Source of the DNA: Ignavibacteriales bacterium
GTDB lineage: Bacteria > Bacteroidota > Ignavibacteria > UBA10030 > UBA8401
NCBI GenBank assembly: GCA_026390635.1
Contig: JAPLFO010000149.1
Span: forward strand, 16,075-80,074
Reading direction: 5' to 3'
DNA: 64,000 bases
Positions within the stretch are counted from its first letter, which is position 1. Each line of letters opens with the position of its first letter. Below, in pieces: positions 20,559-40,243 of this stretch. Position numbers and translations under genes: made by a program. The notes beneath the pieces are model-generated. The model made no database searches and was not told the DNA's origin. It was given only the letters and a program-made list of their open reading frames with translations.

Positions 20559-20873
20559 ATGGATGCCTTTTCAGTCTGGAAGTGCTTCTACCTTAGACAG
20601 AACTTGAGAATAACGGTTTAATAGTGAGGTACTTCGATCTGCCGCCGCCTTCAAAGGAGGAGTCTATTCGCGGCCTCAGGATTCTGACCGGCGATTCTGG
20701 CTCAATCAAGACGGAATCCTGGAATTTTGTTGGTAACGGTGATCCGGCCGCGCGGAAGAAATTCGTTCTGGTCAGATTATTTCACTATCTTCATAACATG
20801 GGATCGATGAAACGGTTCTGCCGCCGGATACAATCGTCCCTCACACACTGTGCATTTTTCGTGTCGAGCTTTT

Positions 20874-23789
20874 ATGATTCGTATCAAAGCGTCTTGGCTC
20901 CTGTTGATCTTGGCGATATTCCCACTTGCCACCGCCAATCGATTATTCGCCGCCGAAAAGAACAGTGTCTCAGTTCCGGTATTTTCCACCCCGCGTGGCT
21001 TTTACAGCAACAGCTTTACAGTTACGGTGAGTTCCGATATTCAATCTGCGGCCATTCAATACACGCTTGATGGCTCAGATCCCAGAACTTCTCCGACGGC
21101 CATACGACACATATCTCCGGCAATTGTTTTGGTGCATCCACAAAGTACCGAAGGCGAACGGGCCAAAGCTCCCGGCTTTGTTCTTCGCGCCTGCACTGTG
21201 GCGGACGACTTCTCCGTTAGCGAACCAGTCACCCACACATACATTTTTGCCGACAACGCCGGATTGCTGTCGGTCGAAGGTGCTGTTCCAGGGCCGCACT
21301 GGCCTTCCACATCCCAATCGAGTCAATCTATTGATTATGGAATGAGTTCGACGGTCTTAAACGATATCCGATATAGAGATGTTATCAGCAACTCGCTGCG
21401 TTCAATTCCGACCATCTCCCTTTCTACGGATCTCAAGCATCTATTTGACGCTGATAGCGGCATCTATATGAATGCGATGATGGATGGCAGAACATGGGAG
21501 CGTCCTGTTTCGATTGAACTCCTCAATCCGGACGGAACGGAGGGTTTTCAAATCAACTGTGGACTTCGAATCCGCGGCGGATGGAGCCGTCACGGTGAGA
21601 ATCCAAAACATGCTTTTCGTCTTTTTTTCAGAAGCGACTACGGCTATGGAAAATTGAAATTCCCTCTTTTCGACAGCGAAGGAGCCGCGGAATTCGACAA
21701 GGTGGATCTTCGCACTGCTCAAAACTACGCCTGGAGTTATCCCGGCCACCTCGGGCAGTATAATACAATGATCAGTGAAGTCTTCTGCCGTGATCTGCAA
21801 AGAGAAATGGGGCAGCCGTATACGCGCAGCAGATTCTACCATTTGTACATCAACGGTGTCTATTGGGGAATCTATCAAACCCAGGAGCGTTCAGAGGCAA
21901 ACTATGCCGCAACATATTTTGGCGGCGCTCAAGAGGATTATGATGTCATCAAGAACGGCGATAACTATGTTGTGGAAGCGACAGACGGAAGTCTGGATGC
22001 ATATCGCACGCTGTGGAATTTCTGCTCAACAGGATTCAGCTCAAACACTATGTATTTTATGATTCAGGGATTAGCTCCTGACGGGACCAAAGATCCTCTC
22101 TATAAGACCCTCGTTGATATCGATAATCTGATAGATTATATGCTGGTCATATTCTATTCCGGCAATTTTGACAGCCCGACATCGAAGTTTGGCAATAACA
22201 AAGGGCTTAATAATTTCTATGCTGTTTATAACAGAAATGGAAACCGCGGATTTCAGTTTTTTGTCCACGATGCGGAACATACGCTTCGAACCACAGCGGG
22301 CGAGGGACCCGGGATCGGACTGTACGAGAACCGCGTAAACATCGGAGACCTGACAGACGGCTATCGAATGCTGGTTAATGATTTTTCTGTATTCCACCCG
22401 CAATGGTTGCACTTCAGATTATCGAGCAATGCTGAGTATCGCATGCGTTTTGCCGATCATGTGTACAAACATTTTTTCAACCGGGGTTGTTTGACACCGG
22501 CAAGAACAGCGGAATTGTTCCTTGCACGCGCAGCAGAAATCGATACTGCTATTATCGGCGAATCTGCACGATGGGGAAATACATACTTGTATCCGGCAGC
22601 AACGAGGGATGACACATGGAAACCCGCGATCAATGATATTGTGAAGAATTATCTCCCCAAACGGTCCTCAATCGTTTTGAGTCAGCTGCAATCCGCTTCA
22701 TTGTATCCCGCAATTCAACCGCCTCTTTTTCTCAACGGTGCGGATACGCTGCCGGGTGAAAGCATTAGAGTGTCTTCCGACTACACGCTGACACTTTCTA
22801 ATCCTAATGGATCAGCGGGCACAATACAGTACACGCTTGACAACAGTGATCCGCGGGCAATCGGAGGAACTTCCGCGCCTGAAGCAAAGCATGGCGGCAA
22901 TCGCGTCGATGTAACAATTCGTTCCACTACTGTGGTAAAAGCCCGTATTCTGAATGGAGGAACCTGGAGTGCGCTGCATGAAATTGTCCTCTTTTCAAAC
23001 GACAACGTCAGGGATCTCAAGGTTACGGAAATACACTACCATCCGTTGCCCGCTGATACGGTCAGCGGAAATGAGATCGAGTTTTTAGAATTGAAAAACA
23101 CCGGATCGTTGCCGATTAATCTATCGCAGGCGGCATTTTCCAAAGGCATTACATACACGTTCCCAACCGGTTGTGTGATTGATCCGAATGCCTTCATTGT
23201 TTTGGCTTCCAACAAAGCGGAGTTCACCAGGCGATATGCATTTCTCCCCTTTGGAGAATACGACGGTCAGCTTGATAACAGCGGCGAGAGAGTCTTGCTC
23301 ATGACCGCAGCAGCCGATACGATTTTTTCAATCCAGTACGATGATACGGCTCCATGGCCTGTTGCACCGGATACCGGGGGGTATTCACTGGTTCCAAAGG
23401 AGATAAATCCCAGAGGTGACCAAAATGACGGCTCACAGTGGCGGTCGTCGTATGCGGTGCACGGTTCTCCCGGACGGGATGATAATGTGACAGCTGTTGA
23501 AAAGACCCCGGCACCGATAGCGCCGCGGTCTTTTGCATTGTATCAAAACTATCCGAATCCATTTAATCCGATCTCAATCATCCGCTATCAGTTGCCGGCC
23601 GCAGCCCGCGTGACCCTCACCATCTATGACGTCCTTGGAAGAGAAGTAACAATGCTGGTGAATGAAATCAAAACTGCTGGAGATTATTCGGTCACATTCG
23701 ATGCGTCAAGACTATCCAGTGGAATGTATTGGGCACGACTGCAGGGCGGCCAAAATATTCAATGCAAGAAAATGATGTTGATACGATAA
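20874..23789 (+). CDS. Secreted CotH-family kinase with FN3-associated domains, LTD and CTD
   Basis: YTLDGSDP twice; GLRIRGGWSR...KHAFRLFFR; LYINGVYWGIY; EIHYHP...EFLELKN LTD; QNYPNPFNP. Start moved to MIRIK. Confidence 0.85.
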   Translation: MIRIKASWLLLILAIFPLATANRLFAAEKNSVSVPVFSTPRGFYSNSFTVTVSSDIQSAAIQYTLDGSDPRTSPTAIRHISPAIVLVHPQSTEGERAKAPGFVLRACTVADDFSVSEPVTHTYIFADNAGLLSVEGAVPGPHWPSTSQSSQSIDYGMSSTVLNDIRYRDVISNSLRSIPTISLSTDLKHLFDADSGIYMNAMMDGRTWERPVSIELLNPDGTEGFQINCGLRIRGGWSRHGENPKHAFRLFFRSDYGYGKLKFPLFDSEGAAEFDKVDLRTAQNYAWSYPGHLGQYNTMISEVFCRDLQREMGQPYTRSRFYHLYINGVYWGIYQTQERSEANYAATYFGGAQEDYDVIKNGDNYVVEATDGSLDAYRTLWNFCSTGFSSNTMYFMIQGLAPDGTKDPLYKTLVDIDNLIDYMLVIFYSGNFDSPTSKFGNNKGLNNFYAVYNRNGNRGFQFFVHDAEHTLRTTAGEGPGIGLYENRVNIGDLTDGYRMLVNDFSVFHPQWLHFRLSSNAEYRMRFADHVYKHFFNRGCLTPARTAELFLARAAEIDTAIIGESARWGNTYLYPAATRDDTWKPAINDIVKNYLPKRSSIVLSQLQSASLYPAIQPPLFLNGADTLPGESIRVSSDYTLTLSNPNGSAGTIQYTLDNSDPRAIGGTSAPEAKHGGNRVDVTIRSTTVVKARILNGGTWSALHEIVLFSNDNVRDLKVTEIHYHPLPADTVSGNEIEFLELKNTGSLPINLSQAAFSKGITYTFPTGCVIDPNAFIVLASNKAEFTRRYAFLPFGEYDGQLDNSGERVLLMTAAADTIFSIQYDDTAPWPVAPDTGGYSLVPKEINPRGDQNDGSQWRSSYAVHGSPGRDDNVTAVEKTPAPIAPRSFALYQNYPNPFNPISIIRYQLPAAARVTLTIYDVLGREVTMLVNEIKTAGDYSVTFDASRLSSGMYWARLQGGQNIQCKKMMLIR

Positions 23790-25737: not shown

Positions 25738-27099
25738 TCATTGAATTCTCACATGCGGCAGCAGCCTGTCGATCTTGCTGTTGAGTGTCGTTCGTGGAAT
25801 CTTGAGCAACCTTGCCGCATCGGTAACATTATTCCTGCACTGAGCGAGAGCCCATTCCAGGATCATCGTTTCCTTGCCTGAGATGTATTCTTCAAACGAC
25901 TGATAATTTGAAAATTCCTCTTTCAGGTATTTGTCCGTTGAACGCTCCGAAAGCGCCAACACCGAAATATCGATCTTGCCGCTGAAGGATAATGCAATCA
26001 TGCGCTCGACGATGTTTTCCAGTTCCCGGACATTTCCGGGCCAATGATACGACTGCAATTTGTCAAAGATTTCATTCGTGAGCAGCATGATCTTGTCTTC
26101 TGCATGATGTTTCTTGAAGAAGTATTCCACCAGCAAGGGAATATCTTCCTTGCGTTCGCGAAGCGTGGGAATCTTTATTGGAATAATGTTCAATCGATAA
26201 AAAAGATCTTCCCGGAATGTTTTATTCTCGACTTTTTTCTTCAAATCGATCTTTGTAGCACATATGATGCGAACGTCGATCGGGATGTTCTGATTTCCGC
26301 CTATATGTGTGATCTCACGCTCTTGAATAACCCTGAGCAGTTTGACCTGGACACTCAACGGAAAATCATCGACATCATCGATAAACAGCGTTCCTCTGTC
26401 TGCCCGTTCAAAATACCCGATATGCTGTTTGATTGCTCCGGTGAAGGATCCTTTTTCATGTCCGAAGAGTTCGCTTTCCAGGATGCTTTCCGGAATACTG
26501 GAGACACTCACCGTAATAAAGTTCTCATCACGACGGGAACTTGTTTTGTGCAGCGCCCGGGCGACAAGTTCTTTCCCCGTTCCGCTTTCCCCTTCGATCA
26601 ATACCGTCGAATCGTTATGCGCTATCTGGCTGATGGTATGAACCAGCGTTTTCATCGGTTGCGACAAGCCGACGATCGTCTTATTCTCAAGAGTTTGAAG
26701 CCTGTTCTTGAGTTCCAGATTCTCCGTAAGGACTTTTTGCAGCTGTTTGATGTTCCGGAGTATGGAAATCAATTTCTCAGGGGAGAATGGTTTGGTGAGA
26801 TAATCATACGCGCCGATCTTCAGCGACTGAATTGCGGTATCCACGCTCGCGTACGCCGTCATCAAAATGACTTTGCACGCCGGCTTGATAGATATAATGG
26901 ATGTCAGCACGTCGATACCGTTCAATTTCGGCAGACGCAGATCGGTGATGACAATGTCCGGATCCGCAGATTTGAAAAGCGTGAGTCCTTCCTCGCCGTT
27001 TTCGGCGGCAAAGACTTCATATCCCTCGTTCACCAGAATATCCGAGAGCGATTTCCGTGTGATTTTTTCGTCCTCAATGATCAGCAGCTTCGTCTTCAT
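25738..27099 (-). CDS. Sigma54-dependent NtrC/AtoC-family response regulator
   Basis: Receiver IIEDE...ITDLRLP; Walker A GESGTGKE; GSFTGA; FREDLFYRLN; C-terminal Fis-type HTH. Start moved to MKTKLL. Confidence 0.93.
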   Translation of the reverse strand: MKTKLLIIEDEKITRKSLSDILVNEGYEVFAAENGEEGLTLFKSADPDIVITDLRLPKLNGIDVLTSIISIKPACKVILMTAYASVDTAIQSLKIGAYDYLTKPFSPEKLISILRNIKQLQKVLTENLELKNRLQTLENKTIVGLSQPMKTLVHTISQIAHNDSTVLIEGESGTGKELVARALHKTSSRRDENFITVSVSSIPESILESELFGHEKGSFTGAIKQHIGYFERADRGTLFIDDVDDFPLSVQVKLLRVIQEREITHIGGNQNIPIDVRIICATKIDLKKKVENKTFREDLFYRLNIIPIKIPTLRERKEDIPLLVEYFFKKHHAEDKIMLLTNEIFDKLQSYHWPGNVRELENIVERMIALSFSGKIDISVLALSERSTDKYLKEEFSNYQSFEEYISGKETMILEWALAQCRNNVTDAARLLKIPRTTLNSKIDRLLPHVRIQ

Positions 27100-28549
27100 A
27101 CGCAACCGGTAATTGTATTGTGAAAATAGTTTCCACATTCTGAGTGCTCTGGACGTCTATCCGCCCGCCGTGTGATTCAATAATTCCCATGCAGACCGAT
27201 AATCCCAGCCCCGTACCTGTGCCGACGTCTTTGGTGGTGAAGAACGGGTCAAATATTTTTTTGAGATCATCCGGGGAAATCCCCGCCCCGCTATCCCGGA
27301 TCTCCATGAACACGTGTTTGCTGTCATTGTTTCCGGTGGTAATTGTGATTGAACCGTTTTTCTCGATGGCATCATAACTGTTCAATACTAGATTCATCAC
27401 CACTTCCTGAAACAAATGAGAATCGATCCGGACTTCTCCGATCTCGCCTGCAAGATCCGTCTGCACGTCGATTTGTTTCTCTTTCAGCCGAAGTTCAAAG
27501 AGATTGAGCACTTTGTGGATTGCATCATTAATATTGATGAGGCTTTCCGATGTTGACTGCTGCCGGGCGAATCCCAGAAGTTTTTTTACGATGGTTTCGA
27601 TATCCTCGATTCCTTCATTGATAAGATTGAGATATTCGCCGGTTTTCTGCCCATTGTTTGCATTCTGCTGGATCGCATACAAGCACGACTTGATACCATT
27701 CAAAGGATTATTCACCTGATGCGCAACGCCGGAAGCGAGCCTGCCGATGGAGGCGAGTTTCTCTGCCTGATAAATCTGTTTCTGCGCCTGCTCCAGTTCC
27801 TTTTTGGAACTTTCCAACCGCCCCTGTAATGATTGAAAGTGATTGTAAAAGAATCCGATCTCATCCTGTCGCCGCGGAAGCTCAATTTGCACATCCGGAG
27901 AAAAATCGATGGAATCAATGACGTGGACAAGCTGCTCCAGTGATGATGTCATCCGGCGGATGGAAATAAAAAGAATCAGAAGCACGATTGACGTAACAAG
28001 AATTGTCGCCACCAGAAGAATGATAAAAACGCTGGCAATCTCATCACGGATCGGCTGCGCATCGAACCCGATGGTGGCCGTGCCCCAGTGCTTTCCGGAA
28101 AATATCAGCGGCTGACGAACTTCCATCGTCCACCCGAACTGAGGATTATCATAGATCTTGATTTCTTTGGCATGTGCGGCAGGCGTTCCCGGATCGAACG
28201 AGAACGACGGGGCATAGTTTGAGTGATTCGTGATCTGAATAATAGATGTCCCGTTTTTGTCGAAGATGACAACATATTGTACATTGCCCAAACGGGAGAT
28301 GAAATTCTCCACATAGGTTTCAAGAATGTTCTCTTTTTTATAGACGGATTTTTCTTCAAAGATCAGCGCATCAACCACGGTCACGGCAAAGGTTCTTGAT
28401 ATGGAGACAGCATTTTCGGATTGTTTCTGAATAATGATCTCTCTCCACTTCAACAGCAGAACAAATGAGATCAGCAGCATGAGAAGCGTGATGACCGAAC
28501 CGGTGAGAAGTAATATTCTTGTCTTGAGACTGGAACGAACACTGAGCAT
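27074..28549 (-). CDS. Membrane sensor histidine kinase (2 TM, HAMP)
   Basis: EKLASIGRLASGVAHQVNNPL H-box; N, G1, F (FDPFFTTK) and G2 (GTGLGL) boxes. Confidence 0.93.
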   Translation of the reverse strand: MLSVRSSLKTRILLLTGSVITLLMLLISFVLLLKWREIIIQKQSENAVSISRTFAVTVVDALIFEEKSVYKKENILETYVENFISRLGNVQYVVIFDKNGTSIIQITNHSNYAPSFSFDPGTPAAHAKEIKIYDNPQFGWTMEVRQPLIFSGKHWGTATIGFDAQPIRDEIASVFIILLVATILVTSIVLLILFISIRRMTSSLEQLVHVIDSIDFSPDVQIELPRRQDEIGFFYNHFQSLQGRLESSKKELEQAQKQIYQAEKLASIGRLASGVAHQVNNPLNGIKSCLYAIQQNANNGQKTGEYLNLINEGIEDIETIVKKLLGFARQQSTSESLININDAIHKVLNLFELRLKEKQIDVQTDLAGEIGEVRIDSHLFQEVVMNLVLNSYDAIEKNGSITITTGNNDSKHVFMEIRDSGAGISPDDLKKIFDPFFTTKDVGTGTGLGLSVCMGIIESHGGRIDVQSTQNVETIFTIQLPVAYEDEAADH

Positions 28550-28560
28550 TCTATCCTCTG

Positions 28561-29456
28561 CTATTTGCTGATCGCTCTCACCACATTATAGTCTTTGTCT
28601 GTCGCTTCCACAAAGCCGTAAATGAATTCAGTATCCCATCCCTGGGTAATTTTTTCCCTGTCAGCATTCATTCGTCCGAGCTTGAGGAGTGTTGTTTTTA
28701 TCGCATCAACGACCGGTTTTGAGTAATCGCGTGCGACAACAATAGGAGACGTTGGAAATGGATCAGAATAGAGTAGTATCCTGATATTTCTGTTCATAAT
28801 TTTTTTAATGAGGTATTCGCGCGTAACACCTTTGTGACATTCAGGATGACGCTTTGATGGTGCGGGAAATTAATAACCTCCTGAAGATCGCTGCGCATGA
28901 TGTTGTTTTTTTTGAATACATAATGCAGTAACCAGTTGGATGAATATGATTCTTTCGACGGCAGAGCGATCTTCTTCTTCCTGAGATCATTCAGACTGAA
29001 GATGTTTTTTGAACCGGTGGTAAAGAGAACAGAGCGCGAGAAAGGTTCAAAATTACTATTCAATGGTTTCAAAATCGGAATAACACCGTATTCGTCGTGC
29101 GCTTTGATATAGACATAGGATCCTACAAATGCCGCTGCAACCTCTTTCCGGATCAACATCTTCACCGCTTGGCCATAATCATCACAGAGCCTGAGCTCGA
29201 ATCTATATGCGGTTTTCGATGTGAGATAGTCCAGCACTGGCTGATAGCCGCTGTAAATGATATGAGGCGGATATCGCGAAATGACGCTGATGTAAACAGC
29301 CGGCTTGTTGACAGAAACGGAATCGATCGAAATCTCTTCGATATTCCTTTCCACAATTCCCTCAATATTTACTGCATATCGGTAGAAATAGTATGTGAAC
29401 ACCGATGCGAGAAACATAAAGAGAGACAATCCGGCGACAATGGTTTTCTTCTTCAT
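28561..29456 (-). pseudogene. Membrane-anchored PhnD-like (phosphate/phosphonate-binding fold) protein, split by a frameshift near 28830
   Basis: Start MKKKTIVAG plus TM; YQPVLDYL...AFVGSYVY...SRSVLF...SYSSNWL...HHQSV. Continues in another frame as GVTREYLIKKIMNRNIRILLYSDPFPTSPIVV...GFVEATDKDY. Confidence 0.75.
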
Positions 29457-29574
29457 TTCTGTACTAATTGGTGTGACTATGGGCGACTGCGATATCTCTA
29501 TAAAAACCGTTCCAAATATTTCTGTCGTCTTTAGGGCAGAATAGCCTATTACTACCGCCGGCATAGACCACGAC

Positions 29575-29684
29575 GACGAAAAATCGTCAACATGACCATT
29601 GATCGTCGAATCAAGATACTGTTTTTTCGACAAACTTGTAATCGGTGCAAAAACAGCCTGTTTTCTATGGCATATTGTTTGACT
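29575..29684 (+). promoter_or_regulatory. Putative sigma54 promoter with upstream palindrome
   Basis: TGGCATATTGTTTGA at 29668-29682 (GG-N10-GA, near the -24/-12 consensus); palindrome GACGA-AAAA-TCGTC at 29575-29588. Confidence 0.5.
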
Positions 29685-29741
29685 ACATGCCATTAACCAG
29701 CAAAGAAACCAATCGATCATTACTACTGAAAGGGAGCCAGT

Positions 29742-30326
29742 ATGCAGGAAATAATACCGCGTTGGGAATGGCGGACGTTTACCAATGACCTAAAAAAGGC
29801 CGAAGAAAACATCCGGAAATTTCCTGAAGGAAAGTCGCGCGAAAGTGCAGAAGTCTATATTCTTTCTGAAGTCAGTATGGACAATACGAAGGTGCGCGAT
29901 GATCTGATGGATATAAAAACCCTTCAACAGGTGAACGAGGATCGGCTTGAACTCTGGCTGCCAATTATGAAAGGTACCTTCCCTCTTCCTGTCCCCGAGA
30001 TCGAAAAAGTATTCAAGTGCTTTCGGGTCAGCGTTCCAAAATTTGAGCGGGATCAGTATACGTTCCAACAGTACCTTGATGAAGTGATCCGTCCGTCGAA
30101 ATTGCTGAAAGCGGTCAATGTGTTCAAGAAACGGACCGGTTTCACGATTAACAACTGCATCGTTGAGATCGCAGAAGTGAAGGTTGACGATAAATGGATC
30201 AAAACCGCCGCAGTCGAAATGGAAGATCCGGCAATGGTTATTAAAACTGTACGCGAACTGGAGTTGGATAACTTCCCGAATATCAATTATCTGCGCGGCC
30301 TCAAGAACCTCGTTGGAATGAAATAA
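29742..30326 (+). CDS. Divergent CYTH-like (triphosphate tunnel) protein
   Basis: N-terminal PRWEWRTF where ExExKF would sit; basic NTKVR/DIK strands; VFKKR; VEIAE; AVEME; terminal NYLRGL. Confidence 0.6.
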   Translation: MQEIIPRWEWRTFTNDLKKAEENIRKFPEGKSRESAEVYILSEVSMDNTKVRDDLMDIKTLQQVNEDRLELWLPIMKGTFPLPVPEIEKVFKCFRVSVPKFERDQYTFQQYLDEVIRPSKLLKAVNVFKKRTGFTINNCIVEIAEVKVDDKWIKTAAVEMEDPAMVIKTVRELELDNFPNINYLRGLKNLVGMK

Positions 30327-30337
30327 GGAGAAGGTCA

Positions 30338-30811
30338 ATGGGAAAAGAGATCGAGAGAAAATTTCTGGTACAGGGAGATTTCAAACCCTCTGCCGGCAAA
30401 CAAACGCGCATCGTGCAGGGATATCTTTCTTCAGTTCCTGAGCGGACGGTACGCGTTCGCATCAAAGGCGACAAGGGATATATCACGATCAAAGGGATCG
30501 GCAATCTATCCGGTGCGAGCAGATATGAATGGGAAAAAGAGATTCCGATCAGCGAAACAGAAGAACTGTTGAAGATTTGTGAGCCGGGAGTGATCGACAA
30601 GACACGATTTTTGGTGAAGGCCGGCGTCCATACATTCGAAGTTGACGAATTCTACGGTGAGAATGACGGGCTTGTCGTTGCAGAGGTCGAACTGGCATCC
30701 GAGACGGAATCGTTTGAAAAGCCATCATGGCTTGGCGAAGAAGTCACCGGAGACACGCGCTACTATAACTCGATGCTGATGAAGAATCCATTTACGAAAT
30801 GGCCAAAGTAG
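30338..30811 (+). CDS. CYTH domain protein (short TTM, tripolyphosphatase-like)
   Basis: EIERKFLV, QGYL, TVRVRI, TIKG, RYEWE, IDKTR, FEVDEF, VAEVEL, EEVTGD. Confidence 0.92.
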   Translation: MGKEIERKFLVQGDFKPSAGKQTRIVQGYLSSVPERTVRVRIKGDKGYITIKGIGNLSGASRYEWEKEIPISETEELLKICEPGVIDKTRFLVKAGVHTFEVDEFYGENDGLVVAEVELASETESFEKPSWLGEEVTGDTRYYNSMLMKNPFTKWPK

Positions 30812-30818
30812 ATAACGA

Positions 30819-32323
30819 ATGACCGTGCGAATTGAATCGGCGGTACCACAATCGGCGGACACTGGTTCCGCAGATCACAACGGAAAGAATCTGGACGAAC
30901 TGCTTGATCTGGACAAGCACCGTCTTTCCGTTATTCCTCAAAAAAAATCCACCGGTACCGAGCGATGGATGAAATTCCTCGGCATTCCTGTCGGCATTGC
31001 GGTTTTCCTTTGGCTCTATTATATGCCGACACCCGCCGGACTTACTGCGTCCGGGCAGTCTATCATTGCATCGTTCTGTTTTGCCCTCATCCTCTGGATT
31101 TCCGAATCCATTCCGACACATGTCACATCGTTGATACTCATGGTGCTGCTTGTGTTCCTGGATGGATGGGACATGAAGAACGTACTGGGCGTTCTGGGTT
31201 TCGACGTTATCTGGCTGAACGTACTGGCATTCATTCTGAGTTCATTGCTGGTAAAAACAAATTTAGCGAAACGAATTGCACTTGCCTTGATCGTAAAATT
31301 CGGTCATAGTGCGATGCCCATGATGCTCGCATTCCTTCTCCTGCAGCTTGTCTTGGCACCGCTGATCCCCGCAACGGCAGCGCGGACCGTGATAACGCTT
31401 CCCATTATGCTGATCGTTGCATCTATCTACGGTTCAACAAATGAGAATCCGAACAATTTTGGAAAGAATCTCTTCCTGCAGAATTTGCTTGGTATCAATA
31501 TTTTTTCTTCCGGATTTATGACCGGAAGCACCGCCAATCTCATTGCCATCTCGTTCATCTTCAGCATGGCGGGAACAAAGGTGTATTATACCGATTGGAT
31601 GTTTGCAAATCTGCCGGTTGTTCTGATTGCCATGTCCCTTGCGTGGGTCATCGGTCCGAAACTGCTGTTCAAACTCTCTGCTAAAGAATCCACCCCGGCC
31701 GTCCATGGCGGCATCGAAGTGCTTAAGAAACAGCTCGACGCAATGGGAAAAATGAGCTTTCTGGAAAAAAAGGGCGCAGTCATTTTTGGCATTGTCGTTA
31801 TTCTCTGGGTAACGGATCGATTCCATTTTGCGCTTTTCGGTTTTCAGATCGATCCGGTTATGGCAGCCATGGTGGGCGGCATTATTGCACTGCTTCCTAA
31901 GGTGGGGATACTAAAATGGAACGACTGTGACATTCCATGGCATCTCATGCTCTTCAGTGCGGGAGCCTATGCCGGTGGATTGGCGCTCAACGACTCCGGT
32001 GCTGCTCGATGGGTGGTCCAGAACCTCTTCTCGGCGTTCCATCTTGACAAAAACATCAACTTCTGGCTGTTGTACACGATTGTTATATCTGTGATGATGT
32101 ATTCGCATTCAATCCGCTGGCATTGGCTCTCCCTGCCGCATTTACTATCGACTGGGTTATCGGACTGCCGATCAGCGCGAAGCCGAATGTCATTTTGTTC
32201 ACGACCGGTCAATATTCCGTATTGGACAACATCAAATACGGATTCATCATGGCAACGATAGGAATCATTCTGCTGGTGATTGCGGGACTTACCTGGTTCA
32301 GATTTTTGGGAATCACTCCATGA
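30819..32323 (+). pseudogene. SLC13/DASS family anion transporter, frameshifted near 32110
   Basis: Multiple TMs; LIPATAAR, TGSTANL, IPWHLMLF. C-terminal NPLALALPAAFTIDWVIGLPISAKPNVILF lies in a different frame. Confidence 0.8.
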
Positions 32324-33081
32324 CGAAGAGAATCGGAGTACATGCATTCATCATATTTCTCCTGGCGGTTCTCCCGCTGCCGATCGCCGCTCAATTGCTG
32401 AAACAGTTTTCAGAACAAGTCCTTCTGGAAAAAGACGGCAGCGCAACAGTGGTGTGGCATATTGTTCCGGCAAGCGATACACTGCGCTCTCTTATGGTGC
32501 CATGGAACTTCCCTTTCACAGCAGGAGAGGCAATTTCTTTTGTCGTTCGCGGTAATGACACATCCTTCCGCGCTGCCGATGCGGAACTTGCCGAGAGGGA
32601 AGGCATCCACTTTGTCAGAGTCGGAAACCACGATCGCTCGCCGCTGCATGCCCTGCAGATGCAATTTACCATTCAGCGGTACTGCAACTTTGGAAAAGAG
32701 AAAGCGACCGATTTCGGGAACTATACAATTAAAAAGAGATTCATCAATACTTCCCTGGCATCGATTGATCAATTCTCACTGGAACTCGTTCTCCCGTCAG
32801 GATTTGTCGTTACGTCTGTCGACGAGACAATTCCCAAGCAGACGGAGGATAATTCCATTTCGCCATTTGTCATTGGAAGGACAGAAGGAAGAAACAGCGT
32901 CGTCGTGCATGCCTCAAAAATGAAACTTGGAGAGCATGCATTTATGAAGTTGCAGACAAAACCTGAGGCAAAGTCTCCCGTGCTATTCATAAGCCTGTCA
33001 CTGATCGGTATTCTCTATGCTTTTTTCTTCCGCGACCTGCTGAAGAAGAAAGAATACGAACAACACGCCGACAAAACGTAA
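32320..33081 (+). CDS. Hypothetical protein with signal peptide and C-terminal membrane anchor
   Basis: ATGA overlap with the transporter stop; beta-rich ectodomain; VLFISLSLIGILYAFFF TM followed by a basic tail. Confidence 0.7.
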   Translation: MTKRIGVHAFIIFLLAVLPLPIAAQLLKQFSEQVLLEKDGSATVVWHIVPASDTLRSLMVPWNFPFTAGEAISFVVRGNDTSFRAADAELAEREGIHFVRVGNHDRSPLHALQMQFTIQRYCNFGKEKATDFGNYTIKKRFINTSLASIDQFSLELVLPSGFVVTSVDETIPKQTEDNSISPFVIGRTEGRNSVVVHASKMKLGEHAFMKLQTKPEAKSPVLFISLSLIGILYAFFFRDLLKKKEYEQHADKT

Positions 33082-33253
33082 TGTCAGGCAGCAATGTCTC
33101 CCTTTTCAAGAATGGTTAAACGTGCAAGAGCAAATCACGATCTTCTGCTTGATGAGTGAGTGACCCCGGAATTCACCGAGGATGTTTTCCCAGATTGGTG
33201 AATTGAATCGCAAATAGCTGGAACAGAATTACAGAACCATCACAAAAAGCAAA

Positions 33254-33269
33254 CGGCATCTCGAGTGCT
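33254..33269 (+). promoter_or_regulatory. Possible second sigma54 promoter upstream of the porin gene
   Basis: CGGCATCTCGAGTGCT (GG-N10-GC). Confidence 0.35.
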
Positions 33270-33339
33270 ATGCTCAAAGATCTAATCAACCATATCAATT
33301 AACTAACCATTTCATCAACTATTTTACAGAGGGATTCTT

Positions 33340-34608
33340 ATGAATACAAAGCATACACGCTGGATCGTGCTGATGTTCGCGTTGATAGGCACCATTAGCT
33401 CTTTCCTCATTGCACAAGACGCTCGCGTGCCCGGCGAGGATGCGATCAAAGCCCCCTTGGGTGCAGAGGCAAAAGACGGTAAGCTCGTTTTTGATTCGAA
33501 GGATTCAACATTTCAATGGTGGTTTGATTCAAGAATTCAGATTGACGGTGCCAAATATTTCGAGAACAAGAACCGCATGAGCGATGGAACGATCATGAGA
33601 AAGGTCACATTCGCACTGAAAGCTGTTCTCTGGAAAAACTGGCAGGCGGAAGTTGATGTTGACTATGGCGAAAACGTCCTTGATCTTCGCGACGCGTTTA
33701 TCCAATTCAATATCCCGAATCAAAATCTTTCATTGAAGGTTGGAAACTTCAAAGAACCGTTCGGATTGGATGCACTGATTAGTTCCCGTCTCTTGCCATT
33801 CATGGAACGTTCCAGTGTTTCAAATGCAATTGCTCTTGGCAGAAGAGTGGGTTTCTCTGCAAACTATTGGCAGGATTATGGGCAGGTAACAGTCGGCGTT
33901 TTCGGACATGAGGTCGGAACAAGAATTGACAAAGGAACCGACGATGAAGGATATTCAGCCAATGTTCGCATCACAGCCGCTCCAATCAACACACATGGCA
34001 AGAACCTCCATTTAGGATTTGCGGCTTCATACAAGACTCCTGATGCTGCGATGGGTGTCCCTCTGAATTCGCTGGAGGTCAAATCGCGTACTGAAACATA
34101 CGTTTTTGATCCCAAACTGCTGCACACTGGTGCTATTACTGATATTAACTATTGGACTCGTTTTTCCGGTGAATTGATGGGAATTTATGGACCGTTCTAT
34201 GTGCAGGCGGAATACTTGGGAATGTCAATTACACGATGGTATGGAAATCCGAAAATCAATCTTGGCGGAGGATATGGGTTAGTCTCTTGGATGGTAACCG
34301 GAGAGACAAGAGCTTATTATGTTGATGAAGGCGAGAGTGGCCCTATTGAACAGCCGATACATTCCTGGGGTGCCTTAGAAGTTGCGGCACGCTATAGTGT
34401 GACCGACCTGAACGACTCTAAAGCCAATATCACCGGTGGAAAAGCGAACATTCTTACACTCGGTGTAAATTACTACCCCGTCCAGACTATCAAAATGATG
34501 TTGAACTATGCGATGGTGAAATTAGATAAGTATGCAGACAGCAACGGCAAGTTCATCGGAGCCGATGATCATTCGTTTGTACAAATAAGGTTTCAAGCAT
34601 CACTCTAA
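33340..34608 (+). CDS. OprO/OprP-family phosphate-selective porin
   Basis: RIQID, LRDAFI, KVGNFKEPFGL, FMERS, FYVQAEY, GALEVAARYS, TLGVNYY; terminal IRFQASL. Confidence 0.88.
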   Translation: MNTKHTRWIVLMFALIGTISSFLIAQDARVPGEDAIKAPLGAEAKDGKLVFDSKDSTFQWWFDSRIQIDGAKYFENKNRMSDGTIMRKVTFALKAVLWKNWQAEVDVDYGENVLDLRDAFIQFNIPNQNLSLKVGNFKEPFGLDALISSRLLPFMERSSVSNAIALGRRVGFSANYWQDYGQVTVGVFGHEVGTRIDKGTDDEGYSANVRITAAPINTHGKNLHLGFAASYKTPDAAMGVPLNSLEVKSRTETYVFDPKLLHTGAITDINYWTRFSGELMGIYGPFYVQAEYLGMSITRWYGNPKINLGGGYGLVSWMVTGETRAYYVDEGESGPIEQPIHSWGALEVAARYSVTDLNDSKANITGGKANILTLGVNYYPVQTIKMMLNYAMVKLDKYADSNGKFIGADDHSFVQIRFQASL

Positions 34609-34623
34609 CCTCGAGGATCATGT

Positions 34624-35553
34624 ATGAAAAAGATAATAGTTGTTATCGTACCGCTTATGATCATTACGGGAGCATTTCTTTCATGTTCCCGAGATGCACC
34701 GGCTCCTACTGGACCGGCACCAAAGGTGATTGTACCGGTAGTAATGAATGAAATATATACACAAGGTATCCGTTCCAATCCAGATTGGATTGAAATTTAC
34801 AATCCCAATTCCGATTCCATAAGTATTGGAGGATATACTGTTTACAGTCTTGCGGGAAAGAACGGCGCAAAACCAAAGAAAGCAATTCCTTCGGGGACCT
34901 ATGTCCCGGGGATGGGTCATTACGTCGTCGTGGTGAATGATACCATCTCTGCAAGCGCGTTTGATCTATCTGCCGGCGGTGAAAAAGTCTGGTTTGAAAA
35001 TGGAACTGGAACCATTGTTGACAGTGTCAATGTACCTGCTCTCGGTGTTGATTCTTCGTATGCACGAAAGCCCGACGGCGCGAGTACGTGGGTTATAGCG
35101 ACGCCACCGACGAAGGGAGCTGCAAATTCTATCCTTCCAATTGTTATGAATGAAATCTTTGTTCAAGGTGTAGCAGGCAATCTTGATTGGATTGAACTGT
35201 ATAACCCCAACACTGCTTCGGCCAATATCGGCGGGTATAAAATCTATGATATCGGCGGACAAGGTGGTACGAAACCAAAGAAGGACATTCCCGTTGGCAC
35301 AATCATTGCCGCAAAAGGCTTCTTCGTAATCATTGTCGATACGGCAAGCTTTACCGGTGATTTGAGCGGATTTGGACTATCCCAAAATGGCGAAGCTGTC
35401 TGGCTGGAAAATGCAAACGGCAATATCCTCGATAATGTCACCTTCCCTGCGATGACAAGCACGGGCGGTACAGTATCGTATGGAAGAAAACCAGATGGGA
35501 GTTCCAACTGGCAGATCCTCACCGTCATTACACGCGGAACATCAAACAATTAA
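34624..35553 (+). CDS. Lipoprotein with two lamin tail domains (LTD)
   Basis: Lipobox FLSC; two MNEI...DWIE(I/L)YN...SY(A/G)RKPDG modules. Confidence 0.82.
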   Translation: MKKIIVVIVPLMIITGAFLSCSRDAPAPTGPAPKVIVPVVMNEIYTQGIRSNPDWIEIYNPNSDSISIGGYTVYSLAGKNGAKPKKAIPSGTYVPGMGHYVVVVNDTISASAFDLSAGGEKVWFENGTGTIVDSVNVPALGVDSSYARKPDGASTWVIATPPTKGAANSILPIVMNEIFVQGVAGNLDWIELYNPNTASANIGGYKIYDIGGQGGTKPKKDIPVGTIIAAKGFFVIIVDTASFTGDLSGFGLSQNGEAVWLENANGNILDNVTFPAMTSTGGTVSYGRKPDGSSNWQILTVITRGTSNN

Positions 35554-35563
35554 GAACGAAGGG

Positions 35564-35592
35564 CTGAACCGGATCACATCGATCCGGTTCAG
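35564..35592. other. Perfect 12-bp intergenic hairpin
   Basis: CTGAACCGGATC-ACATC-GATCCGGTTCAG with no U tract; may be an mRNA stability element. Confidence 0.5.
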
Positions 35593-35604
35593 TGGGATGA
35601 TTGA

Positions 35605-36372
35605 ATGAAGAGAATACGAGTTGTACCTCTGCCAATGGCTAGCGTTGCGCTCATACCATTGTTGTTGCTGCTGGCATGCAGTCGCACGGAACCGACTGTT
35701 GCAGTTCCAGTGCCAGTCAACGGCGGGCTTGTGGAGCTAAGCGTTCATAACACGTCTGTTCCGGAACCCTCAGGGCTGGTGTACAATTCCAAGAACAACA
35801 CCTTGATGACAGTATCAGACGCAAACGCGACTGTGTACGAGATTGATTTTATGGGAAACATTCTTCATTCGTTTGTAGTGCAGGGATCGGATCTGGAGGG
35901 AATTGCACTGTCGCCAGATTGCGACACAATGTATTTGGCGGAGGAAGGAAACCAACAGATTTCAACGTATCTCATCAACGGCTCGAAGATCAGTTCATTG
36001 AAAGTTCCTGTCGCAACCGAACAGAACCATTCGTTGGAAGGGGTCACGATTGACGATCGCCGCCACATCTATGTCGTCAATGAGAAGAATCCGAGATTAT
36101 TACTGGAATTCAACGGAGTAACGGAAGTCGCCCGGACGGAGATCACTGCAACGCTGGATCTGTCGGATGTCAGCTACGATGCCGCTTACGATTGTCTCTG
36201 GATCGTCAGTGACGAGTCACAAAAGATATTAAAATGCACCAGAAGCGGCATTGTTCTGAACGAATATCAGATTTCCTTCTCCAAGGGAGAGGGAATTGCC
36301 ATGGTCGGCGACAAGATGTACATTATAAGCGATGCAACCGGGAAATTGTATGTGTTCAATAAACCCCGATAG
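35605..36372 (+). CDS. SdiA-regulated/YjiK-like beta-propeller lipoprotein
   Basis: Lipobox LLAC; EPSGL, DLEGI, SLEGV, DLSDV, IVSDES and GEGIA blade motifs. Confidence 0.8.
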   Translation: MKRIRVVPLPMASVALIPLLLLLACSRTEPTVAVPVPVNGGLVELSVHNTSVPEPSGLVYNSKNNTLMTVSDANATVYEIDFMGNILHSFVVQGSDLEGIALSPDCDTMYLAEEGNQQISTYLINGSKISSLKVPVATEQNHSLEGVTIDDRRHIYVVNEKNPRLLLEFNGVTEVARTEITATLDLSDVSYDAAYDCLWIVSDESQKILKCTRSGIVLNEYQISFSKGEGIAMVGDKMYIISDATGKLYVFNKPR

Positions 36373-36635
36373 AATCAATAGCACGGGCTGCGATCTTTCA
36401 TCATGAGAAGGAAATACACAAAAACCGTGCACTTCTTGATTGAATTCGTTCACTAGAAGGTAAAGAGCAACGATTCTTTGGGGTATTTTGTATGTTGTAA
36501 AAGGAGCAGTTGCAAATATATTGCTTTCCAAAAACCACAATAGCAATATTTCCATTACTACTTGATGGTGCGGAGTTACGCCATCGTTGTATATAATTAA
36601 TTCACCTTGCTCTCCCTAAAAATAATGGAGGTCCA

Positions 36636-37820
36636 ATGAAAAAGAAATCGTTACTCTGTGTTGCGGTGTTATCCGTGCTGTTATGCGCGCATCTCAGTAT
36701 GGCCCAATCACCGATCAAAGTAAATGAGATTTATTCGCGCGGAGTCGCCGGAAATCTTGATTGGGTGGAGATGTACAATACATCGGCAGCATCGGTAGAT
36801 ATAAGCGGATACAAAATTTATGACGCCGGCGGCAAAACAGGAACAAAGCCCAAGAAACTATTTCCGACAGGAACGATCCTTCCCGCGAAAGGCTTTACCG
36901 TAATCATCGTCGATACCGCAAGCTTCACCGGCGATCTGAGCGGATTTGGACTTGGCAGCGGCGGCGACAGCGTATGGGTCGAAAATGCGGCAGGAACACT
37001 GATCGATTCCGTCTTCATTCCTGCTCTTGGCGTCGATACGACCTATGCACGCATTCCGGACGGCTCAAACGCATTAGTGAAAGCCACTCCGGCGACAAAA
37101 GGTTCCTCGAATGTGCTTGTTAAAATGAATGAAGTGTATACACGTGGCGTTGCAGGGAATCTTGATTGGATCGAGATGTATAACACATTAACCACACAGA
37201 TAGATATAAGCGGCTATAAAATCTACGACAACGGCGGAAGAGGCGGAACAAAACCGAAGAAATTATTCCCGACTGGGACAATTCTTCCTGCCAAAGGATT
37301 CTTCTTGATTGTTGTCGACACAGCAAGCTACACCGGTGATCTGAGCGGGTTTGGACTCGGAAGCGGCGGCGATACCGTCTGGGTGGAAAATACCGCGGGA
37401 ATAGTGATTGATTCCGTCTACCTTCCGGCTCTCGGTGTGGACACAACGTATGCGCGCAAACCGGACGGCTCCAACCTTTTTGTGAAATCCTCCCCGGCAA
37501 CCAAGGGTGCAACGAACGGCCCCGCAACGTCTGTTCGATCAAATACACTGTTTGTGTCAGACTTCGTGTTGAATCAGAACTTCCCTAATCCGTTCAATCC
37601 AACGACAACTATTAGTTATCAACTGACATCGAAGAGCATGGTTTCGCTCAGAGTCTATGATCTTCTGGGAAAAGAGATCGCAGAACTTGTGAACGAACAA
37701 AAAGAAGCCGGATCGTATTCTGTACAATTTAACGCCCGCAATCTTGCAAGCGGCATCTACATGGTTGGATTGAAGGCCGGCAACTACTCGGAAATGAAGA
37801 AGATGACTTTAATCAGATGA
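36636..37820 (+). CDS. Secreted protein with two near-identical LTDs and CTD
   Basis: GGAGG RBS; signal peptide; duplicated NE(I/V)YxRGVAGNLDWxEMYN...GTKPKKLFPTGTILPAKG; QNFPNPFNP. Confidence 0.85.
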   Translation: MKKKSLLCVAVLSVLLCAHLSMAQSPIKVNEIYSRGVAGNLDWVEMYNTSAASVDISGYKIYDAGGKTGTKPKKLFPTGTILPAKGFTVIIVDTASFTGDLSGFGLGSGGDSVWVENAAGTLIDSVFIPALGVDTTYARIPDGSNALVKATPATKGSSNVLVKMNEVYTRGVAGNLDWIEMYNTLTTQIDISGYKIYDNGGRGGTKPKKLFPTGTILPAKGFFLIVVDTASYTGDLSGFGLGSGGDTVWVENTAGIVIDSVYLPALGVDTTYARKPDGSNLFVKSSPATKGATNGPATSVRSNTLFVSDFVLNQNFPNPFNPTTTISYQLTSKSMVSLRVYDLLGKEIAELVNEQKEAGSYSVQFNARNLASGIYMVGLKAGNYSEMKKMTLIR

Positions 37821-37927
37821 GTAAACACCGCAGGAATAACGTCGTCTTTGCCTATATAGAATTGGCCGTCATTGTGTCTGTGATACTGTTTGGAATCATT
37901 CAGGCAATATTGTTCTTGCTGAAGTAA
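37817..37927 (+). CDS. Putative 36-aa single-TM small protein
   Basis: ATGA overlap with the upstream stop; MSKHRRNNVVFAYIELAVIVSVILFGIIQAILFLLK. Confidence 0.45.
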   Translation: MSKHRRNNVVFAYIELAVIVSVILFGIIQAILFLLK

Positions 37928-38445
37928 CTTTGATTTCCGCTCCACCACAATAGTTCGAGGATTTTGTTTGTGGTGGAGCGTATTTCTGCTTACCGCATGG
38001 CCGCATTGATTCGAGTTGCCCGGCAGATGATCTGTCTTCAGGATCCCGCAAGGGGGACTGCCGCACCGGACGGACCCGGGCAACAAGGCAAATGACGTTG
38101 ATGGAATTGGATTCTCAGCCAGCCCCGTCCCAGCGGCGGGGCTGTGTCTTGTGGTGGACACTCCCTTGGTCTTTTCCGGCGATGCACGCCTTCGTCACCG
38201 GAACACCCCGCATTCGACCGGCATTTGCCTCCCCTGCTATTTCAGCTCGGATGAAATTCTCCTCATTCCACTGAAAAATATGCCTTTTGATCGCAGATAT
38301 TGCTATCCTTCAAGATGACGACGTATCTTCCGGCTATTGAGTGTCGTCTCATTGCGGTGAGGACGAAAGAATTGCCCATTTTGCCATCCCCCAATGCGCA
38401 GGTTTTCCGCCAACACGTCGTCTATTCTTACAGAACCGGGAATTG

Positions 38446-39021
38446 ATGGAAGAGAAAGAACTCATACATCGGCTGCGAGATGGTGACAACAGTGCATATC
38501 GTTTGATTATTGACCGATATCAAACTTCCGTTCTGAATTGTTGTTTCAAGTTCGTGCGACACAGAGAGACCGCCGAGGACTTGACACAGGACGTTTTCAT
38601 AGAAGTCTACAGATCGATTCATATGTTCAGATCGGCATCAAAGTTTTCGACGTGGCTCTTGAGAATTGCAATATCAAAATCATTAGATCATATCAAGAGC
38701 CAGAAAAGAAAAAAACGATTCGGATATTTGAAGAGCATCTTTTCCGGCGACGATTCTGAAGAGCGCGCTCTATCATCCGATCTTCACAATCCGCAGCAAC
38801 TGCTGGAGAATGAAGACAGGGTGCAATTGCTTTCGTGGGCAATAGAATCGTTGCCCGATAATCAGAAGATAGCGTTGACACTCAGCAAATACGATGAACG
38901 AAGCTACAAGGAGATTGCTGACATTCTCCACACAACCATTCCCGCTGTTGAATCGTTGATTGTCCGTGCAAAATCAAATATGAAGAAAAAACTGTACGCA
39001 CATTATAAGAAGCATCTATAG
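38446..39021 (+). CDS. ECF RNA polymerase sigma factor
   Basis: AEDLTQDVFIEVY...FSTWLLRIA; SYKEIADIL...VESLIVRAK. Start moved to MEEKEL. Confidence 0.92.
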   Translation: MEEKELIHRLRDGDNSAYRLIIDRYQTSVLNCCFKFVRHRETAEDLTQDVFIEVYRSIHMFRSASKFSTWLLRIAISKSLDHIKSQKRKKRFGYLKSIFSGDDSEERALSSDLHNPQQLLENEDRVQLLSWAIESLPDNQKIALTLSKYDERSYKEIADILHTTIPAVESLIVRAKSNMKKKLYAHYKKHL

Positions 39022-39391: not shown

Positions 39392-40243
39392 ATGGATCTG
39401 ATAAGACAGAACAAGTTTATCGGCTGGGTCGTCGCCCTGTTGGTAGGACTAAATCTCCTCACATTGACCATGATTTGGATTCAGTCGGAACGAAGGAATC
39501 CCCCCCCACTCAGAGATTCCGGAAATTCTCCCGCGAGTCCTGTTCCCATGCTGCAGCGCGAGCTTGAGCTTACGGCTGACCAGACGGACAAATTTCAGGG
39601 AGTATGGAGGAATCATCAGGAGAAGACGAAAGAGATTAGTGAAGCACGGGACAATCTGAAACGCCTGATGACCGATGAGATATTCAGCTCCACGCCGGAC
39701 AAGCAGAGGGTTGACTCACTCGCCTCGGGAATTGGAAGTCTTGAAGCCAGGATGGAAATATTGCGCTACGAACATTTCAGATTGCTGGCACAAATCTGCA
39801 CCAGTGAACAGAAGACTCAACTGGGTGCAATACTGAGAGAGATCATCCGCAGGAAGGGGCCGACCGGAACGCCCGATCTCAAACCACAACAGCAGCGGTC
39901 GAAGGCCCCCGCAACGTTGAAGAACAATAGAGACATTGAAGAAAGACAACGACCGCCCCGACCGGATGACCGACAGGGCCCACCGACCGCGCTTCAGAAG
40001 CTCGATCGATATGCAGAAAGACTCTCTCTCTCACCTGATCAGATCAAAAAGGTCAAAGACATTCTTGCCCTTTCCCGAACAAAGGAAGAGAAGTTTAAGT
40101 CTCAATCCAGACCGAGTCCGGCTGACTTCGAGATTGAAAAACAGAAAGTGCGAAACGAAGAAGATGAAAGCATTGTCAGCATTCTGAATCCGCGGCAGAA
40201 AGTGGAATTCGAGGAGATGGTGAGAAACCGGGGGAAAAAATAG
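39392..40243 (+). CDS. Spy/CpxP-like periplasmic sensor/chaperone protein
   Basis: N-terminal anchor; LELTADQ, CTSEQK, LSLSPDQ and LNPRQK (LTxxQ-type motifs). Confidence 0.72.
   Translation: MDLIRQNKFIGWVVALLVGLNLLTLTMIWIQSERRNPPPLRDSGNSPASPVPMLQRELELTADQTDKFQGVWRNHQEKTKEISEARDNLKRLMTDEIFSSTPDKQRVDSLASGIGSLEARMEILRYEHFRLLAQICTSEQKTQLGAILREIIRRKGPTGTPDLKPQQQRSKAPATLKNNRDIEERQRPPRPDDRQGPPTALQKLDRYAERLSLSPDQIKKVKDILALSRTKEEKFKSQSRPSPADFEIEKQKVRNEEDESIVSILNPRQKVEFEEMVRNRGKK

Follow-up and report, generated by a model that had tools for sequence, protein, structure and literature searches.

What single task could bring together, in one divergent locus, a binding protein of the phosphonate type with its own signalling genes, two proteins of the triphosphate-tunnel kind, an anion transporter, an OprO/OprP-like porin and a set of surface proteins? 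The question is posed by eleven genes at positions 25738 to 37820 of a 64,000-nucleotide stretch from an Ignavibacteriales genome (contig JAPLFO010000149.1; the whole stretch is called the window here). An earlier inspection of the same DNA, below the original prediction, had described this divergent locus and read it as one sigma54-controlled route for the sensing, capture, import and hydrolysis of condensed phosphates. An open reading frame listing and Pfam scans recovered all eleven genes, with the positions, orientations and domains that had been assigned to them. A role of the locus in phosphorus biology is well supported by the data presented below. The most economical reading, to which we give a probability of about one half, is that it imports condensed inorganic phosphate, which would then be hydrolysed in the cytoplasm.

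The comparisons draw on 79 loci, obtained by a pattern scan of species-representative genomes with a 14-sequence alignment of the first tunnel protein, CYTHL, from which the best 80 of at least 583 confirmed CYTHL-encoding stretches were taken. Fractions given for these loci describe a best-scoring subset in which many loci are close kin, and hold for this sample only; genes were counted by tblastn with the locus proteins, in loci with enough flank, and lineages are those named in the record titles. Three samples of genomes were used in addition: 41 relatives (including the window's own genome), 201 genomes across the class and 301 from the phylum of locus L085, a Firmicutes-labelled record. 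The source genome itself is 3.98 Mb in size and 96.2% complete. Protein families were assigned with Pfam and NCBIfam models, and folds by searching AlphaFold2 (AF2) models with Foldseek.

CYTHL and its conserved partners

The rightward arm begins with CYTHL (29742-30326, + strand), a cytoplasmic protein of 194 amino acids that has no Pfam or NCBIfam match. The Pfam CYTH and VTC models and the NCBIfam models gave nothing at E values up to 0.01, and a profile built from 60 CYTHL sequences came no closer to a solved CYTH protein (1yem) than E 0.31. The AF2 model (predicted local distance difference test score, pLDDT, 97.6) found ThTPase, AtTTM3, class IV cyclases and SaTTM as its top Foldseek matches (E 2.5e-6 to 1e-3, template-modelling (TM) score 0.4-0.57), Mediator head subunits being rare exceptions near the bottom of these top matches. 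The protein, originally described as CYTH-like, is thus a genuine triphosphate-tunnel fold. The ExExK signature of strand 1 is absent from CYTHL, which carries RxExR instead. Residues R7, E9, R11 and Y39 are invariant in the 60 sequences, and the invariant or near-invariant charged positions (R7, E9, R11, E37, K50, R52, K59, E70, K129, R131, E142 and E159) alternate along the strands of the model, a pattern that fits a charged tunnel able to bind a phosphate chain.

CYTHL belongs to a family of 1277 clusters, whose members are annotated at source as 'hypothetical protein' or, apparently by association, as exopolyphosphatase. A Ppx-GppA domain is fused to CYTHL in five of the ten long homologues scanned, and four long homologues (P0011, P0017, P0021 and P0032) had no Pfam match. 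Three further genomes of the family encode it at 87-93% identity. The module is sparse: 4 of the 41 relatives (the window's own genome counted) and 8 of the 201 genomes of the class sample have CYTHL. A prediction of a CYTHL-CYTH complex scored 0.00; controls were not run, and the result gives no verdict and is counted neither way.

Three further observations concern CYTHL copies. Across Ignavibacteria-labelled loci, CYTHL shows 74-95% identity, as against 53-80% for the NtrC-type activator, 37-76% for the PhnD-like protein and 37-56% for the YjiK-like protein. A second, more divergent CYTHL copy lies near the sensor genes in some loci (L018:4900-6000 and L083:5000), L018 also having a second CYTH gene. 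Two CYTHL matches in genomes of the Firmicutes-labelled phylum (G229:C3:50238-50816 and G273:C31:142441-143019) contain one in-frame stop each, TAG and TAA.

The next gene (30338-30811, + strand) encodes a short CYTH/TTM protein of the NeuTTM type, 157 amino acids long and cytoplasmic, that matches PF01928 with 58.6 bits (cut-off 23.2); neither it nor CYTHL has a signal peptide. Its closest solved structure is NE1496, the NeuTTM enzyme of Nitrosomonas europaea (2fbl/3typ; E about 2e-17, nearly full length). The N-terminus, MGKEIERKF, keeps ExExK, and E4, E6, K8, R39, R41, K52, E64, E66, K88, R90, E116 and E118 do not vary among 35 locus homologues. The description of this protein as a canonical short CYTH therefore holds, on the family match, the signature and the charged tunnel residues alike. 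NE1496 is presented as a specific inorganic triphosphatase in PMC3440374, and by similarity to this nearest relative the locus CYTH is a predicted NeuTTM-type triphosphatase. It shares with NeuTTM the ExExK and the charged tunnel residues, but differs in its setting: in every case it is accompanied by CYTHL, a second and divergent tunnel protein, and by an importer.

The arrangement of these genes is conserved. Three relatives of the same family repeat it in full, with a DUF47 (PhoU_div) gene and a PHO4/PiT gene added between the DASS transporter gene and the porin gene. The neighbour of CYTHL is either CYTH (53) or Ppx (17) in 70 of the 72 loci with at least 1.5 kb of downstream sequence. Loci of the CYTH type also contain DASS (43/51), PiT (45/47), the porin (46/47), LTD (38/41), YjiK (38/41), the PhnD-like gene (32/38) and NtrC (31/38). 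The record titles name Ignavibacteria, Melioribacteraceae, Calditrichia, KSB1, Krumholzibacteria, Fibrobacter and Acidobacteriota. Conservation of synteny had been named as a check on the original prediction; the arrangement recurs across the 79 loci, and the proposal was not refuted on this count.

Two slots of the module are occupied by different proteins in different lineages. In two Bacteroidota-labelled loci (L050 and L052), a Ppx/GppA protein of 304 amino acids replaces CYTH (Ppx-GppA, 183.6 bits). In nine loci labelled Calditrichia, KSB1 or Deferribacteres (among them L053-L055, L057-L060 and L068), DASS is replaced by a TctC-TctB fusion and TctA, that is, by a tripartite tricarboxylate transporter (TTT). 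Both replacements occur together in the order CYTHL, Ppx, TctC, TctA in L085 and in the Atribacterota-labelled L064, and this order was found in all four CYTHL-positive genomes among the 301 sampled from the phylum of L085. The record of L086 breaks off behind TctC, and the Cloacimonadota-labelled L078 has its TTT genes about 6 kb downstream. As judged from gene order and family assignment, the invariant unit is CYTHL with a predicted condensed-phosphate hydrolase, and a predicted polyanion importer comes directly after it in most lineages. The use of Ppx/GppA in the CYTH slot, or fused to CYTHL, recalls the ppk-ppx operon; the window differs from that operon in using CYTH, in having a tunnel-fold protein rather than PPK as the partner, and in that no polyphosphate kinase was found in its genome.

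Some loci carry additional genes. A DUF498 (Mth938-like) gene stands between CYTHL and CYTH in TTT-type loci (L055:10649-11050; also L053 and L057-L060), and L055 alone has a gene for an unassigned 160-amino-acid protein between TctA and DUF47. In the Ignavibacteria-labelled loci, CYTH and DASS each come in two subtypes that are combined in different ways, a sign that variants of the locus may have recombined.

The transporter of the window (30819-32323, + strand) is a DASS/SLC13 protein (Na_sulph_symp, 168.8 bits, cut-off 27) whose reading frame is broken at about 32109. An intact homologue from locus L005 scores 197.4 bits against a cut-off of 198.6 for TIGR00785. The closest solved relatives are LaINDY, DiT1, NaCT and NaS1, the first two of which align over the full length. 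The window protein thus shares the Na_sulph_symp family with LaINDY, VcINDY, NaCT and NaS1, but the tip of its first hairpin reads P-A-T-A-A-R where LaINDY has P-S-N-S-A-R. It differs also in company, in that one DASS subtype of the locus has an anchored ectodomain protein as its dedicated companion, whose gene stands beside 17 of the 18 DASS genes of the window type as against 1 of the 26 of the other subtype. In the window this protein (32320-33081, + strand; 253 amino acids) has a signal peptide, two beta-sandwiches and a C-terminal helix. Its AF2 model (pLDDT 84.8) found only generic beta-sandwich-plus-helix matches (oligosaccharyltransferase subunits, TM score about 0.46), which are uninformative on function. 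The yeast transporters Pho87/90/91 are linked to the DASS family; unlike them, the window DASS is without SPX, and no closer link to phosphate-carrying members was found. Indeed, no SPX family was among the Pfam matches of the proteins of the window or of L005, DASS included. As for the alternative carrier, TTT systems depend on a binding protein, which implies import.

The porin (33340-34608, + strand; Porin_O_P, 189 bits) has OprP (2o4v, 2e-16) and OprO (4rjw, 3e-13) as its closest solved relatives. It shares its family and a phosphorus-acquisition theme with the Pseudomonas OprP/OprO porins of the PhoBR-Pst Pho regulon, but the locus differs from that regulon in two respects: control is by an NtrC-type activator with sigma54 and not by PhoB, and uptake across the inner membrane is by DASS or TTT and PiT and not by Pst. 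The DUF47-PiT pair located in 45 of the 47 CYTH-type loci is missing from the locus of the window. This absence is real, because a public contig of sequencing run X1 spans 32109 to 33400 gap-free. The sole DUF47-PiT pair of the source genome lies on contig C104. Co-regulation of this pair with the locus was considered and rejected, since about 450 bp of upstream sequence contain neither a sigma54-like nor a palindrome motif. In the window, the 258-bp gap that holds DUF47 and PiT in relatives contains a weak GG-N10-GC element (33255-33268), 72 bp 5′ of the porin start.

A three-component sensor arm and predicted sigma54-type control

The leftward arm consists of three genes, all on the − strand. 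The first (28561-29456) encodes a PhnD/PtxB-like binding protein with an N-terminal membrane helix (Phosphonate-bd, 90.8 bits; frame broken near 28830), and its intact homologue in L005 (5704-6624) covers the whole model (1-242/242, 159.3 bits). The second (27074-28549) is a sensor histidine kinase that has a domain in the periplasm and spans the membrane with two helices (HATPase_c 85.9, HisKA 41.3 bits), whose best partial NCBIfam matches, AtoS and ZraS, are both far under their cut-offs. The third (25738-27138) is a sigma54 activator of the NtrC family, built of a receiver, an AAA+ domain for interaction with sigma54 and a Fis-type HTH (Sigma54_activat 226.9, Response_reg 104.5, HTH_8 32.8 bits) that is 75-79% identical in the three relatives. 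The original prediction was right about the presence of the PhnD-like protein and its membrane helix, but not about its start, which homology places at 29456 and not at 29720. This start leaves a divergent control region of 285 bp.

The binding protein is closest among solved proteins to PtxB (7e-13), ArrX (1e-10), HtxB and AioX (4e-4). ArrX and AioX are described as first components of signalling systems (PMC5908839), AioX being the sensor for AioS/AioR (PMC5908839, PMC7565993). The PhnD-like gene stands beside kinase and sigma54 activator genes in 31-32 of the 38 CYTH-type loci with enough upstream flank. On the basis of its three parts (binding protein, histidine kinase and sigma54 activator) and of the sigma54-type target promoter, the sensor arm resembles the AioXSR/ArrXSR three-component systems. 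It differs from them in that the binding protein is held at the membrane by its N-terminal helix, in the weakness of the similarity to AioX (E 4e-4), and in that the genes under its control concern phosphorus, not arsenic.

The control region contains two conserved elements. A pair of palindromes of the type GACGA-N4-TCGTC, 19 bp apart (29575-29607), is a candidate binding site for the activator, and a sigma54-type -24/-12 promoter element (29668-29682, + strand) begins 74 bp 5′ of the CYTHL ATG. In alignments of the intergenic regions, TGGCATA...TTG is invariant in all four genomes amid variable flanks, and the palindromic sites are likewise conserved in all four. The paired palindrome occurs only once in the 3.98-Mb genome, at this locus. 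We searched for a relaxed -24/-12 element 25-130 bp upstream in the wider set, with shuffled sequence as control. Among 61 transport-type loci, 52 have the -24/-12 element and 44 at least one palindrome site, compared to means of 0.7 (maximum 3) and 0.2, respectively, in the shuffled control (n = 61). The element was present in 1 of the 13 Ppx-only Acidobacteria-labelled loci and in none of the four Ppx-TTT loci of other phyla, and the palindrome in none of either group. Both motifs are kept in loci without an adjacent sensor (e.g. L037, L040 and L047). Together with the presence of rpoN in the source genome, this motif evidence supports the sigma54 control that had been proposed. Control apart from PhoBR/Pst is supported as well: the regulator at the locus is of the NtrC type, no PhoB-type regulator or Pst transporter was found there (Pho boxes were not searched), and pstB-phoU lie on another contig (C23). 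The presence of pstB-phoU elsewhere in the genome indicates that control by the locus is additional to the Pst system and no replacement for it.

Surface proteins, flanking genes and broken reading frames

Three genes for exported proteins follow the porin gene on the + strand. The first (34624-35553) encodes a lipoprotein with two lamin-tail domain (LTD) stretches (86.6 bits; signal peptide end ...FLSC, a lipobox), for which no solved protein related in sequence was found at E values of up to 0.1; the LTD region weakly resembles the LTD part of the model for the extracellular exonuclease ExeM (E 7.8e-5, far under the cut-off). The second (35605-36372) is a YjiK/SdiA-regulated beta-propeller lipoprotein (PF06977, 87.1 bits; signal peptide end ...LLAC, a lipobox) that also matches Phytase-like PF13449 at 41 bits and has YjiK (3qqz, 4e-6) as a solved relative. 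The third (36636-37820) is a secreted protein with a signal peptide, two LTD stretches (97.1 bits) and a type IX C-terminal domain (Por_Secre_tail 48.4 bits, cut-off 27). Pfam scans of the locus in the window found no recognisable nuclease or phosphatase catalytic domain. A terminator-like hairpin at 38120-38144 (+ strand; 10 pairs, 8 of them G-C; a consensus match only) may mark the end of the rightward transcription unit.

Two large secreted proteins with a CotH kinase domain, LTD and a type IX tail flank the locus (20850-23789 and 40283-42607); their LTD parts share about 50% identity with the LTD proteins of the locus. The CotH domain was not found near the locus in two relatives, and we place the flanking genes outside the conserved locus on this comparison. 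Directly downstream are genes for an extracytoplasmic function (ECF) sigma factor (38341-39021) and an LTXXQ/Metal_resist protein (39392-40243), neither of which had a tblastn match in the regions of relatives that reach past the locus (L005 and L006).

It should be noted that the PhnD-like and DASS genes are each split across two frames in the window. Compared to intact homologues, the window is short of 16 nt in the former (at 28830) and of 76 nt in the latter (at about 32109; reference L030), and the breaks are not homopolymer slips. Public contigs of three runs (X6, X8 and X1, the last perhaps the source sample) have 16 extra letters at 28830 and about 76 at 32109, lengths that exactly fit restoration of both frames, while contigs of run X5 end at both positions; otherwise these contigs are near-identical to the window. 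Since contigs from three of the four runs carry the missing bases, both breaks are particular to this genome record, and the populations sampled probably have both genes intact. Deletions of 16 and 76 nt in the record raise the question of further affected genes in the assembly.

Condensed phosphate or another substrate

The phosphorus theme of the original prediction was strengthened by three observations: DUF47 and PiT in the loci of relatives, the exchange of CYTH for Ppx/GppA, and the fusion of CYTHL to Ppx. We infer from the conserved module that its parts form one route for condensed phosphates, and the substrate, the direction of flow, the ligand of the sensor and the roles of the LTD and YjiK proteins are inferred with it. 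The simplest explanation is import, because it accounts together for the swap in the hydrolase slot, for an importer slot filled by DASS or TTT, for hydrolases that are cytoplasmic and for a porin of the O/P type. In the source genome import is favoured further: neither PPK1 (PF02503, PF13090) nor PPK2 (PF03976) was found in the 96.2%-complete assembly, which makes an endogenous polyphosphate substrate less likely in this organism. A stand-alone Ppx/GppA gene is present on contig C50. PPK1 is found in 145 of the 201 genomes of the class sample and in none of 11 in one neighbouring family. The possibility that CYTHL serves as a substitute polyphosphate synthase found no support, since PPK1 occurs in 6 of the 8 CYTHL-positive and in 139 of the 193 CYTHL-negative genomes of that sample, with no complementary pattern.

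We propose that the genes make up a self-regulated phosphorus-acquisition locus. The anchored PtxB/PhnD-like protein would signal to the histidine kinase and the NtrC-type activator, and the activator, bound to the paired palindrome, would fire the sigma54 promoter of the rightward operon. Extracellular tripolyphosphate, short polyphosphate and perhaps pyrophosphate would pass the porin, and the DASS or TTT carrier would bring the condensed phosphate into the cytoplasm. There CYTHL, with CYTH or Ppx, would cleave it to orthophosphate, while orthophosphate freed outside the cell would be taken up through PiT. In this model the invariant core would be cytoplasmic CYTHL, a condensed-phosphate hydrolase (CYTH here, Ppx/GppA elsewhere) and a polyanion importer (DASS here, TTT elsewhere), to which diderm versions would add an OprO/P-type porin, surface LTD proteins, a YjiK-like propeller and usually DUF47 with PiT.

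Several observations weigh against the import of condensed phosphate. The closest solved relatives of the DASS protein carry dicarboxylates, citrate or sulfate, and known TTT systems carry carboxylates. The periplasmic part of the kinase weakly resembles sCache_3_2 (25 bits, under the 28.4 cut-off), a type associated with carboxylate sensors. The presence of PiT in most loci makes orthophosphate itself a transported species. PPK1 in 6 of the 8 CYTHL-positive genomes of the class sample means that endogenous polyphosphate is possible in general. CYTHL is without the first glutamate of ExExK and, judging from this, may bind its ligand without hydrolysing it. Lastly, 13 Acidobacteria-labelled loci have CYTHL, most of them with Ppx alongside, but no transporter, no porin and no other gene of the set, and the sigma54 motif was present in only one of them; such transporter-free loci indicate a role of the CYTHL-Ppx pair that is independent of import.

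Four of these points would be accommodated by orthophosphate homeostasis, an unlikely explanation but the best of the alternatives. Here the porin, PiT and perhaps DASS, by analogy with Pho87/90, would move orthophosphate, and CYTHL with CYTH or Ppx would act on internal triphosphate or polyphosphate, or sense it in the manner of SPX, and so tune transport. The regular presence of DUF47 and PiT in CYTH-type loci, the transporter-free pairs, PPK1 in most CYTHL-positive genomes of the class and the glutamate missing from CYTHL would all be expected. The source genome, however, yielded neither PPK1 nor PPK2, and no SPX domain was found in its DASS protein. The transporter slot is filled by the binding-protein-dependent TTT in nine loci that have PiT as well, and we know of no precedent for TTT as an orthophosphate carrier. 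Moreover, hydrolase and importer are also paired in a Firmicutes-labelled lineage in which the 12.5-20.6 kb examined contain no PiT.

It is less probable still that the locus scavenges organic or mixed polyanionic phosphorus, such as extracellular DNA, nucleotides, phytate or phosphorylated carboxylates, with LTD and YjiK proteins binding or degrading the polymer and the carrier importing a small organic product. The weak LTD match to the ExeM model, the Phytase-like match of the YjiK protein and the organic anions carried by relatives of DASS and TTT point in this direction. Against this, the locus in the window encodes no recognisable nuclease or phosphatase catalytic domain, and the proposal gives no reason for the invariant position of a triphosphatase or exopolyphosphatase beside the importer, which holds even where there is no LTD or YjiK gene.

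Uptake of citrate or dicarboxylates, or efflux and detoxification of metal phosphate, with the phosphorus genes adjacent by coincidence, appears very improbable: the family assignments of DASS and TTT, the sCache_3_2 resemblance of the kinase, the nearby ECF sigma factor and LTXXQ/Metal_resist genes and a reported part of polyphosphate degradation and Pit in copper tolerance (PMC3994843) would fit it, but the co-conservation of the O/P porin, PiT, DUF47, the PhnD-like protein and CYTH/Ppx is far too regular for coincidence, the ECF and LTXXQ genes are unmatched beyond the locus in L005 and L006, and a binding-protein-dependent TTT speaks against efflux.

The preferred reading, import of condensed phosphate, bears on a gap in the field. 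A 2026 account (PMC13318637) refers to the route by which microbes access and import exogenous polyphosphate as unknown, and a literature search, which was not exhaustive and did not cover supplementary tables, found no described pathway with this composition, as the original prediction had supposed. The building blocks are all from known families, and an overall plan that combines sensor, porin, carrier and hydrolase is well known; what is new is the tunnel-fold family CYTHL and, possibly, the substrate class. With somewhat less than an even chance of being right, we would describe the locus as the first dedicated bacterial import pathway for exogenous tripolyphosphate or short polyphosphate. 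Its marker would be CYTHL, working as an obligate partner to the triphosphatase or exopolyphosphatase that stands next to DASS or TTT; the module would extend over at least eight phyla (by record titles), diderms of the Fibrobacteres-Chlorobi-Bacteroidetes (FCB) type adding the O/P porin, surface LTD proteins and a sigma54 sensor of the AioXSR kind that would detect a phosphorus oxyanion.

Polyphosphate can be a large share of biological phosphorus, and the locus offers concrete candidate genes for its import: a porin, two interchangeable types of importer, two interchangeable hydrolases, CYTHL and a dedicated sensor. If the proposal is true, the three-component design of the AioXSR type would be extended from arsenic to phosphorus, and the many unannotated CYTHL genes would gain a functional context.

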